Source: Candidatus Heimdallarchaeota archaeon
GTDB lineage: Archaea; Asgardarchaeota; Heimdallarchaeia; JABLTI01
Direction: 5' to 3'
NCBI GenBank assembly: GCA_018238155.1
Contig: JABCTZ010000007.1
Coordinates: 32,001 to 96,000, forward strand
DNA: 64,000 nucleotides
The translations under genes and the position numbers were made by a program. Position 1 is the stretch's first letter; every line of letters starts with the position of its first letter. Shown piece after piece: positions 54,691 to 55,656 of this stretch. Under the pieces are notes generated by a model. It was not told the origin of the DNA and did no database searches. It worked only from the letters and a program-made list of their open reading frames with translations.

Positions 54691-55656
54691 TTGGCAATTG
54701 CAGATTTCTTTGATATAATTCCAAGTATAGGTATTTTTTGGAATACAGTAATATTTACTTCGCTAGCTTGGTTGCTAGTTGTGATTGTAATAGTAATAAT
54801 TTTTATACTAACTTCAAAAAAGAAGAAAGGCGTTGATGTTTCTGCTTTAGCTGCTCTGGCATCATCTGAACCGATGAGTGAAGAAACAGCACCAGATGCT
54901 AATCCAAAAGAAGTTATGGCTATTTTACAAATAGAACGCGTTGCAGCGAGTACTGCTTTATCTGCAGTCAAAGATGCGCGAAAATCTAAAAGAATAAGTT
55001 CAGGTGTACGTGATTCATTAGCTAATCGGTATAAAGCTCGGATTGCAAAAATTGATGCTGACTTGAAACGCAGATCTGGCGCTCAAGAATATAAATCATT
55101 AGCAGATAGTTTAGAACAATCCAGAGATCGAGTAAGAGGTGAAATTGTTCCAGGTACTGGACCAAGTTCAATACCCCCTCCTCCCCCCTCCTCAAGCACT
55201 CCAGGTATTCCATCAATTGCTCCCCCCGTACCTGGTGTCCCTCGTCCACCATCAACAGCAGGTCCTCCAAGTATTCCATCAACAGGTCCACCTAAAGTTC
55301 CCTCATTGGGCACACCTCCATCAAAACCATCTTCACCAATACCCATACCACCAAGCATCCCAACGGTATCCTCTTCCGCTAGACCTACAACTGTAGTTCC
55401 TCCAAGTGTTGCTCCTCCAACAGTTTCAACACCACCTTTACCCCCTAGATTACCTGCATCTTCCCCAATTGCTCCTCCAACAACATCAAATATAGCTCCT
55501 CCACCTGTTCCTACATCCACACCTGCAGCGTCTCCAACAGCTCCTGTTGCGCCAACTGGTGATGGCGACGGTCAAAGTATAAGTGGTTTAAGAATGGAAA
55601 TGCTGAGAGAATTAGCACGATTGAAGAAATTTATGAGTGAAGAAACTCAAGATTAA
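54691..55656 (+). CDS. Membrane-anchored protein with a helical domain, proline-rich region and C-terminal amphipathic helix
   Basis: N-terminal TM + KKKK; ~135 aa Pro/Ser/Thr-rich tract; GLRMEMLRELARLKK. Confidence 0.75.
   Translation: MAIADFFDIIPSIGIFWNTVIFTSLAWLLVVIVIVIIFILTSKKKKGVDVSALAALASSEPMSEETAPDANPKEVMAILQIERVAASTALSAVKDARKSKRISSGVRDSLANRYKARIAKIDADLKRRSGAQEYKSLADSLEQSRDRVRGEIVPGTGPSSIPPPPPSSSTPGIPSIAPPVPGVPRPPSTAGPPSIPSTGPPKVPSLGTPPSKPSSPIPIPPSIPTVSSSARPTTVVPPSVAPPTVSTPPLPPRLPASSPIAPPTTSNIAPPPVPTSTPAASPTAPVAPTGDGDGQSISGLRMEMLRELARLKKFMSEETQD

Follow-up and report, generated by a model that had tools for sequence, protein, structure and literature searches.

Asgard archaea possess eukaryote-like actin, profilin, gelsolin and ESCRT proteins. 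The actin regulators described for them in the reviews and research papers searched are profilins and gelsolins only, with no nucleator, elongation factor or membrane-actin linker. In eukaryotic actin, a hydrophobic groove receives the helices of WH2 domains, thymosin and gelsolin. The same groove of crenactin is bound by arcadin-2 of Pyrobaculum, a protein in which an unstructured linker joins a core to a conserved helix at the C terminus; this helix binds with a dissociation constant of 31 nM, and the arcadin-2 gene lies beside that of crenactin (PMC5173319). A second kind of C-terminal element occurs in the ESCRT-III proteins of Asgard archaea, the ends of which were called MIM1-like, after the MIM1-type MIT-interacting motif, by Lu et al. 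2020 (PMC7240154). Here we describe a gene for a protein ending in a helix that invites comparison with both. It lies in a 64,000-nucleotide stretch of a Candidatus Heimdallarchaeota archaeon genome (contig JABCTZ010000007.1, positions 32,001 to 96,000 of the forward strand), which is referred to below as the window. Judged from sequence, its product belongs to a protein family that occurs in most Asgard archaea, and represents the membrane-anchored form of that family; a literature search returned no description of it. We consider it likely that the protein acts in the cytoplasm as an adaptor that presents a tethered docking peptide. That the partner of its C-terminal tail is actin or an actin paralogue is a tentative proposal, to which we give somewhat less than an even chance. 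The full model, which combines a membrane tether, an oligomer, a flexible arm and a docking helix with an actin-family partner, is put forward equally tentatively.

A word-indexed protein search returned 46 proteins, about 45 of which are 54-79% identical to the query and 300-330 amino acids long; they come from Heimdallarchaeota or Asgard bins, and all 46 are unnamed or labeled hypothetical. Alignment of homologues had been suggested as a check on the terminal helix by a preliminary description of this DNA, and conservation of the helix proved to be very strong: the last 20 residues are identical in the approximately 45 homologues as well as in three relatives whose overall identity is only 30%. 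In the tail, mean column identity reaches 0.84, versus 0.27-0.50 in the other parts of the protein. In a set of 400 Asgard genomes, a full-length profile detected the family in 118, and a profile of the last 41 positions detected the tail in 327, mostly as one copy each; among the high-quality genomes the tail was present in 78 of 90. It was absent from all 13 genomes of families f23, f24 and f25 according to the same tail profile. The core common to all tails reads L-R/Q-x-E-M-L-x-E-L/M-x-R-L-K/R followed by two hydrophobic positions (in short, LR.EML.EL.RLK). The position after L-K is variable in the family (K, E, A, T or G), and the second K of the LKK sequence is not conserved.

For a comparison of the regions preceding the tail, 20 distant family loci were retrieved, and three types of head were distinguished. 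The first consists of one transmembrane (TM) segment and a hairpin, as in the window, and occurs also in a Thor-like family in which the arm is built of GGPPG repeats. The second has a domain of about 10 TM segments together with the hairpin (556-567 amino acids in total). The third, found in Loki-like and Odin-like genomes, is a soluble helical head in proteins of 203-259 amino acids, with an arm of GPPKAPPSG-type repeats; Prometheoarchaeum and Lokiarchaeum have this form. Across the family, the arm keeps its length and Pro content, and its sequence and repeat type vary. Taken at the level of these alignments, the tail is the part under selection, and heads and arms are interchangeable carriers. 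As a separate observation on the polytopic form (about 10 TM segments), one f6 genome contains two tandem paralogues of it on the minus strand (L043, 5819-7522 and 8104-9783), and several other f6 genomes also have two tail matches.

Among 1.84 billion representative proteins, the tail profile gave 100 matches, nearly all of them with the motif at the extreme C terminus. A few proteins carry two or three copies, and in P0050 three copies are arranged in tandem about 41 residues apart. In P0058, P0137 and P0140, that is, in 3 of 75 representative proteins, the motif follows a Ras/Roc-type G domain and polyproline, and in P0063, P0075 and P0134 it adjoins a Cys-rich domain (CPxCG ... GIPCCxCF) of unassigned family. 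Because of the tandem copies, the GTPase fusions and the variety of carriers, the tail motif is read here as a modular short peptide used in the cytoplasm. P0142 likewise belongs to the representative proteins with tandem or combined use of the motif, a set comprising tandem, Ras/Roc, PPPPP and Cys-rich cases. The gene neighborhoods of P0050, P0063, P0058, P0137 and P0075 were uninformative except for one further Ras-family gene.

The layout that had been read from the window at the outset, with a TM anchor, a helical domain, a Pro-rich tract and a terminal helix in a single open reading frame (ORF), is confirmed by sequence and by an AlphaFold2 model built from a 32-sequence alignment (Table 1). 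Homologues share the start position of this ORF. The terminal motif GLRMEMLRELARLKK occupies residues 299-313 and lies exactly at 55585-55629, where it had been placed, within the predicted helix. The Pro-rich tract, for which PPPPP and several PxxP had been reported, is 144 residues long and contains 50 Pro (35%) and 41 Ser/Thr, with one PPPPP, one PPP, 19 PxxP and one PTAP. The N terminus is predicted to lie outside and everything after residue 43 in the cytoplasm, because an acidic stub without basic residues precedes the TM segment and KKKK follows it (positive-inside rule), and because soluble and GTPase-fused proteins carry the same motif. A cytoplasmic tail, on which the preliminary description depended, is thus supported along both lines. 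For the whole protein, Pfam and NCBIfam gave no family, with weak matches to TM segments only.

Table 1. Positions in the window of the gene, its predicted parts and the adjoining features.
Feature	Residues	Coordinates	Strand	Basis
Whole gene, 321 amino acids, TTG start	1-321	54691-55656	+	ORF and translation; 46 database homologues; family census
Acidic N-terminal stub, predicted extracellular	1-13	54691-54729	+	2 acidic and 0 basic residues; positive-inside rule
Predicted TM anchor	14-42	54730-54816	+	29 apolar uncharged residues; AlphaFold2 helix 15-45
KKKK patch, putative stop-transfer	43-46	54817-54828	+	Sequence; basic patch kept at the same place in homologues
Predicted juxtamembrane helical hairpin	72-152	54904-55146	+	AlphaFold2 helices 72-98 and 104-152, predicted local distance difference test (pLDDT) about 90
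Pro-rich tether, predicted disordered	153-296	55147-55578	+	Composition; AlphaFold2 without secondary structure, block-mean pLDDT 47-61
Putative C-terminal docking helix, core LRMEMLRELARLKKFM	297-319	55579-55647	+	AlphaFold2 pLDDT about 90; homologue conservation
Terminator-like hairpin followed by T-rich run, between this gene and the next		55671-55695	+	Consensus match only
Arf-family G domain with longin/roadblock-like C-terminal domain (Rag-like two-domain layout)		55786-56715	+	Pfam Arf 1.3e-17

Evidence pointing to an actin-family partner comes from family f20 (Loki-like). There, in 63 of the 65 genomes present in both coordinate lists, the family gene has a gene for an actin paralogue downstream of it on the same strand. 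The gap between the two genes ranges from 130 to 5900 bp, and at least nine genera are represented. The arrangement persists despite divergence of the paralogue to 61% identity and despite insertions of unrelated genes into the gap. The f20 paralogue has 373 amino acids, scores 300 bits on the Pfam Actin model and is about 40% identical to canonical actin. Canonical actin itself shows 72-83% identity across the phylum, a degree of conservation similar to that of the tail, and only 51-55% identity in the tail-less families f23, f24 and f25. In f24, Snf7 is kept in all five genomes and Vps4 is 51% identical, yet there is no tail. Regarding the paralogue as such, we note that it is a single-copy gene for 371-374 amino acids in 117 of 135 f20 genomes (for example, L042 3677-4798, L054 6903-8027 and L055 10549-11664).

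The AlphaFold2 model and the conservation profile give the protein the same order of parts as arcadin-2, with an unstructured linker between a core and a conserved helix at the C terminus. Compared by description (PDB 5LY3, PMC5173319), both proteins are archaeal and have a structured core, a non-conserved linker and a small C-terminal helix, conserved and amphipathic as suits a groove, that carries the activity of arcadin-2 and would carry that of the family; moreover, the arcadin-2 gene is found beside that of an actin homologue, as is the family gene in f20. By contrast, arcadin-2 is soluble, has no Pro-rich arm and depends on a Trp in its helix, and the gene in the window has no nearby actin gene. 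A further resemblance is to the F-actin-binding motif of human VASP, with which the tail shares 8 of 17 identities, a match that may be due to chance for one of many known motifs. The form of this motif given in the preliminary description agrees with the published human sequence (GLMEEM..LARRRK; PMC10340426), which shares 8 identities with the tail.

In the model that we propose, one N-terminal TM helix would fix the protein in the cell membrane, the juxtamembrane hairpin would probably assemble it into oligomers, and the Pro-rich arm of about 140 residues would serve as an extended spacer, long and flexible. Docking onto a very conserved cytosolic protein would then fall to the amphipathic helix at the C terminus, which is near-invariant. 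If this partner belongs to the actin family, the helix would sit in the hydrophobic groove between actin subdomains 1 and 3, and the protein would link monomeric or filamentous actin to the cytoplasmic side of the membrane.

Several observations weigh against an actin-family partner. Sequence searches detected no relationship between the tail and WH2, or between the tail and actin-binding chains of the PDB. In the AlphaFold2 model, which is a single-chain prediction and not a bound state, helix 297-319 continues through LKK; in WH2, the LKK motif follows the helix in an extended conformation. Synteny with the actin paralogue is confined to f20, where it could be inherited gene order, and is absent from the window and from f19, f3, f9, f27, f28, f31 and f33. 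In the genome studied here, the conserved neighbor is an Arf-like GTPase and not actin. The MIM1-like ends of the Asgard ESCRT-IIIB proteins share the register of the tail when the two are aligned. In addition, the second half of the tail is nearly the same as the final heptads of the GCN4 zipper, so that the tail could be a mere coiled-coil element. The Pfam Profilin model matched nothing in the source genome and nothing in the control genomes either, and is thus uninformative.

A bolder version of the proposal holds that the tail is the Asgard actin-groove binder and that the arm recruits profilin-actin. The protein would then be a prokaryotic actin assembly factor or membrane-actin linker and, in nearly all Asgard archaea, a pre-eukaryotic functional precursor or analogue of machinery of the WH2/VASP/formin type; the soluble, polytopic and GTPase-fused carriers would form an actin-regulator network. 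We regard this version as doubtful. The resemblance to nucleation-promoting factors is an analogy. Likeness to WH2 and VASP proteins consists in a Pro-rich tract followed by a basic amphipathic helix that ends in L-K-K, and in the tandem repetition of the motif in other Asgard proteins, which recalls nucleators with WH2 domains in tandem. The differences are that the tail helix is predicted to be continuous, that its second Lys is not conserved, and that there is neither an EVH1 domain nor a Pfam WH2 match. As to family membership, the description of the tail as WH2-like or VASP-like therefore did not hold up. Ena/VASP proteins are not known outside a part of the eukaryotes, so that any likeness to VASP would be convergent.

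Membership in known families was examined for each of these likenesses. WH2 (PF02205) gave no match for the tail of this protein or any of 21 family tails, even at E<=10. Pfam detects no EVH1 or VASP tetramerization domain, and the N terminus is a predicted TM anchor; we rejected Ena/VASP membership. An ESCRT-III protein was rejected likewise, with no Snf7 match at E<=1 in Pfam and a fold likeness of the hairpin to Snf7 that lies within noise. The only Pfam match of the tails was to the 14-residue OAR motif of homeodomain proteins, in 9 of the 21 (best E 0.013), which we take as chance. A profile search of the PDB with the tail returned no WH2, VASP, CHMP or IST1 chain at E<=10 and nothing significant, and the ESM Atlas gave no usable match for the tail. 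The arcadin-2 chain 5LY3 was likewise absent from the PDB results, but its peptide falls below the 20-residue limit of the library searched.

Next to the actin family, the explanation that survives best, although we think it unlikely, is that the tail is a MIM1-type MIT-interacting motif. The protein, anchored in the membrane, would then recruit Vps4 or the second MIT protein of the genome, or be a substrate of either, in the manner of a CdvA-like ESCRT platform. Eukaryotic MIM1 follows the consensus (D/E)xxLxxRLxxL(K/R), from which the tail departs at the Arg, where it has Glu, and at the leading acidic position. However, based on the ESCRT-IIIB consensus and the hhalign register, the Glu that breaks the eukaryotic consensus is the rule in Asgard MIM1-like ends. 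In 17 genomes the Asgard ESCRT-IIIB end has the consensus ELEKEIxKLKE, with the same register (E-hydrophobic-x-basic-E-hydrophobic-x-basic-L-K) as EMLRELARLK, and hhalign aligns this end with EMLkEL.RLKk over 12 columns (P 5e-4, probability 31%). The two ESCRT-III proteins of the source genome, which end in ..ELAKEIEELRK.. and ..DEIAELRKK.., share this register. The fit to MIM1 put forward in the preliminary description thus fails for the eukaryotic consensus and stands for the variant carried by the Asgard ESCRT-III proteins themselves.

The position of the helix at the extreme C terminus (residues 297-319 of 321), after an acidic and Pro-rich stretch, is as in ESCRT-III. The source genome has two MIT proteins, the top fold matches of the hairpin, none of them significant, include the ESCRT-I core, CdvA and Snf7, and one family member matches the Pfam CdvA coiled-coil at 2e-4. 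Measured against the ends that Lu et al. term MIM1-like (PMC7240154), the tail agrees in being an extreme C-terminal amphipathic helix after an acidic or Pro-containing stretch and in the Asgard-variant register hydrophobic-x-x-E-hydrophobic-x-x-L-K/R. Its helix is, however, longer, more hydrophobic and far more conserved, is not preceded by a Snf7 core, and has Glu for the eukaryotic Arg.

Conservation argues against an MIT ligand. The tail is near-invariant across the phylum versus 27-51% identity for the Vps4 MIT domain, and true MIM1-like ends vary freely; partners of one groove should drift together. The retention of Snf7 and Vps4 in the tail-less f24 points in the same direction. Pfam finds no Snf7 core in the protein, and the hhalign match is short and lies between charged helices, where its statistics are unreliable. 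No ESCRT gene stands beside a family member in 23 clustered loci (5-7 kb flanks) or in the Odin-like loci. The latter (L044 and L059) contain phosphate-transport, ribosomal S25 and purine genes, with the ESCRT cluster of G303 about 326 kb away, and the two Snf7 genes of the source genome are located elsewhere. Apart from this, the second MIT protein of the source genome (284 amino acids; L007 859-1713, minus strand, contig C6) consists of an MIT domain, a tract with several PPPP/PPPPP runs and an unassigned C-terminal domain, and is a possible reader of MIM-like helices.

Less probable still is that the protein serves as the membrane anchor of a small-GTPase module, as LAMTOR1/Ego1 does for Rag/Gtr, with the tail or the hairpin binding the longin/roadblock-like domain of the product of the next gene. 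In f1, the family of genomes to which the window belongs, an Arf-family GTPase gene follows 3' of the family gene in every locus with an available downstream flank, and also in a 59%-identical relative with different upstream genes. This GTPase has an intact P-loop and degenerate G3 (WDLKDH) and G4 (SKSD) motifs. Its AlphaFold2 model (pLDDT 81.6) shows a bb-a-bbb-a-a C-terminal domain, and Foldseek relates the G domain to Asgard HodArfR1 and Arl3 and the full length to RagA/C. As orthologues start with MSAIK, its start is probably the ATG at 55786 or 55789 and not the TTG at 55762.

The fusions of the motif to Ras/Roc-type G domains described above, and Ras-family genes that are divergent neighbors in two other lineages, also speak for a link with small GTPases. 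Against this, the tail is phylum-wide while the pairing with the GTPase gene is conserved only in f1 and one more distant genome, and is absent from f3 loci and other distant loci. Three such neighbors in 20 loci and 3 fusions in 75 proteins are, by a rough estimate, near what chance would give in GTPase-rich Asgard genomes, and a terminator-like hairpin separates the two genes.

We find it improbable, to a degree slightly beyond that of the GTPase anchor, that the tail is a short self-bundling coiled coil that oligomerizes the protein or gathers motif-bearing proteins at the membrane-anchored member. The segment ELARLKKFM resembles the last GCN4 heptads, EVARLKKLV, including the spacing of the E-to-K g-e' salt bridge (the heptad reading is our own). 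Hydrophobic residues occupy a/d/e/g-like positions, and occurrence of the motif on unrelated architectures would force mutual compatibility. Nevertheless, about three heptads are short for a stable coiled coil, and the outward-facing charged residues E303 and R310 are invariant, which self-association does not require. The tandem copies in one chain of P0050 fit a multivalent ligand better.

A tail acting outside the cell, with the Pro/Ser/Thr tract forming a stalk there in the manner of TonB or S-layer anchors, is very improbable. A TM segment with Pro-rich spacers is typical of envelope-spanning proteins and a Ser/Thr-rich tract could be glycosylated, but KKKK follows the TM segment, the stub at the N terminus is acidic, a basic n-region like that of a signal peptide is lacking, and the same tail occurs on proteins without a TM segment or signal peptide and on small-GTPase fusions.

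Taking the possible partners of the docking helix together, we place an actin-family protein first, short of an even chance, and an MIT domain second, as unlikely; a GTPase module and self-association follow in this order, each with a small share, and the remainder goes to something else. Whichever it is, the partner of the tail is a central hub of Asgard cell biology, because the family is found in most Asgard genomes, usually as a single copy, with a helix about as conserved as actin and several carrier forms. A 30-residue peptide is sufficient to seek this partner by pull-down. The answer bears on how the closest archaeal relatives of eukaryotes connect their membranes to the cytoskeleton or to membrane-remodeling machinery. 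If the partner proves to be Vps4, or if the helix only self-associates, the outcome would be more modest, yet still a new pan-Asgard module.

The hairpin is probably an assembly or oligomerization domain. Residues E82 and Y114 are invariant in it, and the pattern L.IEK..A...L......G.IS...Y..L...Y recurs. An exhaustive fold comparison of the AlphaFold2 model gave only generic hairpins (ESCRT-I core, CdvA filament, Snf7 and Asgard ESCRT-IIIB) at Z 9-10, values beneath the noise level stated for helical folds. The tail helix is part of none of the top 50 fold matches, which suggests that the model does not pack the tail onto the hairpin. In profile comparison, the hairpin matches both repeats of the four-helix bundle in the OST1 cytoplasmic domain of Prometheoarchaeum (8whn_A) at E 8.4e-4; the match is borderline, with each repeat alone at E 0.3-0.9, and we treat it as a lead. 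The OST1 domain binds ribosomes in pull-downs (PMC11417166). In OST1 (ribophorin I), as in the present protein, the matched region lies just inside the membrane after a TM helix. The two differ in that OST1 has two hairpins to the single one here, and neither a Pro-rich arm nor the tail.

Single family members give weak Pfam matches of the hairpin to CdvA coiled-coil, SHOCT or Vps23 core. For CdvA coiled-coil (PF18822), 1 of 17 hairpins matched at 2e-4 and 1 of 75 motif-bearing proteins at 7.8e-4; over 121 genomes, the Pfam CdvA model touches the family only in f33 (E 5.6e-4 and 2.7e-3). The family resembles CdvA in being membrane-associated and in having a helical hairpin, a flexible linker and a short C-terminal peptide that binds, or here would bind, a partner. 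The hairpin superposes on the CdvA filament 9s9g with Z 9.5 and a root mean square deviation of 2.0 over 87 residues, a value within noise for helical hairpins. In contrast to CdvA, the family protein is attached by a TM helix and has no PRC barrel, and the end peptide of CdvA is a strand that binds a winged helix. A CdvA PRC barrel was rejected on the basis of Pfam, which finds none, and residues 1-46 consist of the stub, TM helix and basic patch.

Aside from the family, ORFs matching the Pfam CdvA coiled-coil above the curated cut-off occur in f13 and f14 (255-280 amino acids) and in f31 (541-582 amino acids). Such CdvA-type matches include G120:C279:3988-4275, G119:C3:59498-59779, G116:C1:1099278-1099553 and G113:C1:140949-141233. 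Those of G120 and G112 lie on other contigs than the respective tail-profile match from the full-length profile search.

The arm fits the role of a spacer, because its length and Pro content are kept and its sequence is not. Low-affinity proline ligands might be present in it as well; polyproline is bound weakly by one Heimdallarchaeial profilin (PMC8410842).

The widely conserved neighbors of the family are rpiA and genes for a PIN-ATPase-KH protein, a tRNA-splicing endonuclease and an eIF-2B-like protein. We read these housekeeping neighbors as old synteny and not as a functional link. In the source genome, a gene for a 308-amino acid Gtr1/RagA-family GTPase (Pfam 1.3e-22; L092 2234-3160, contig C17) lies directly 3' of the ESCRT-IIIB gene. 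The succession of a protein with a MIM1-like terminal helix and a two-domain GTPase thus occurs twice in this genome, and the two GTPases share no BLAST similarity.

Finally, a conserved ORF of 88-96 amino acids that belongs to no Pfam family adjoins or lies near the gene for the soluble form in Loki-like and Odin-like genomes; no match to it was obtained in the source genome. The ORF has 26 invariant positions, including IP..DE and FYIP, and is located at L042 5976-6242, L044 4887-5177, L055 5037-5303, L056 9294-9572 and L059 7035-7325.

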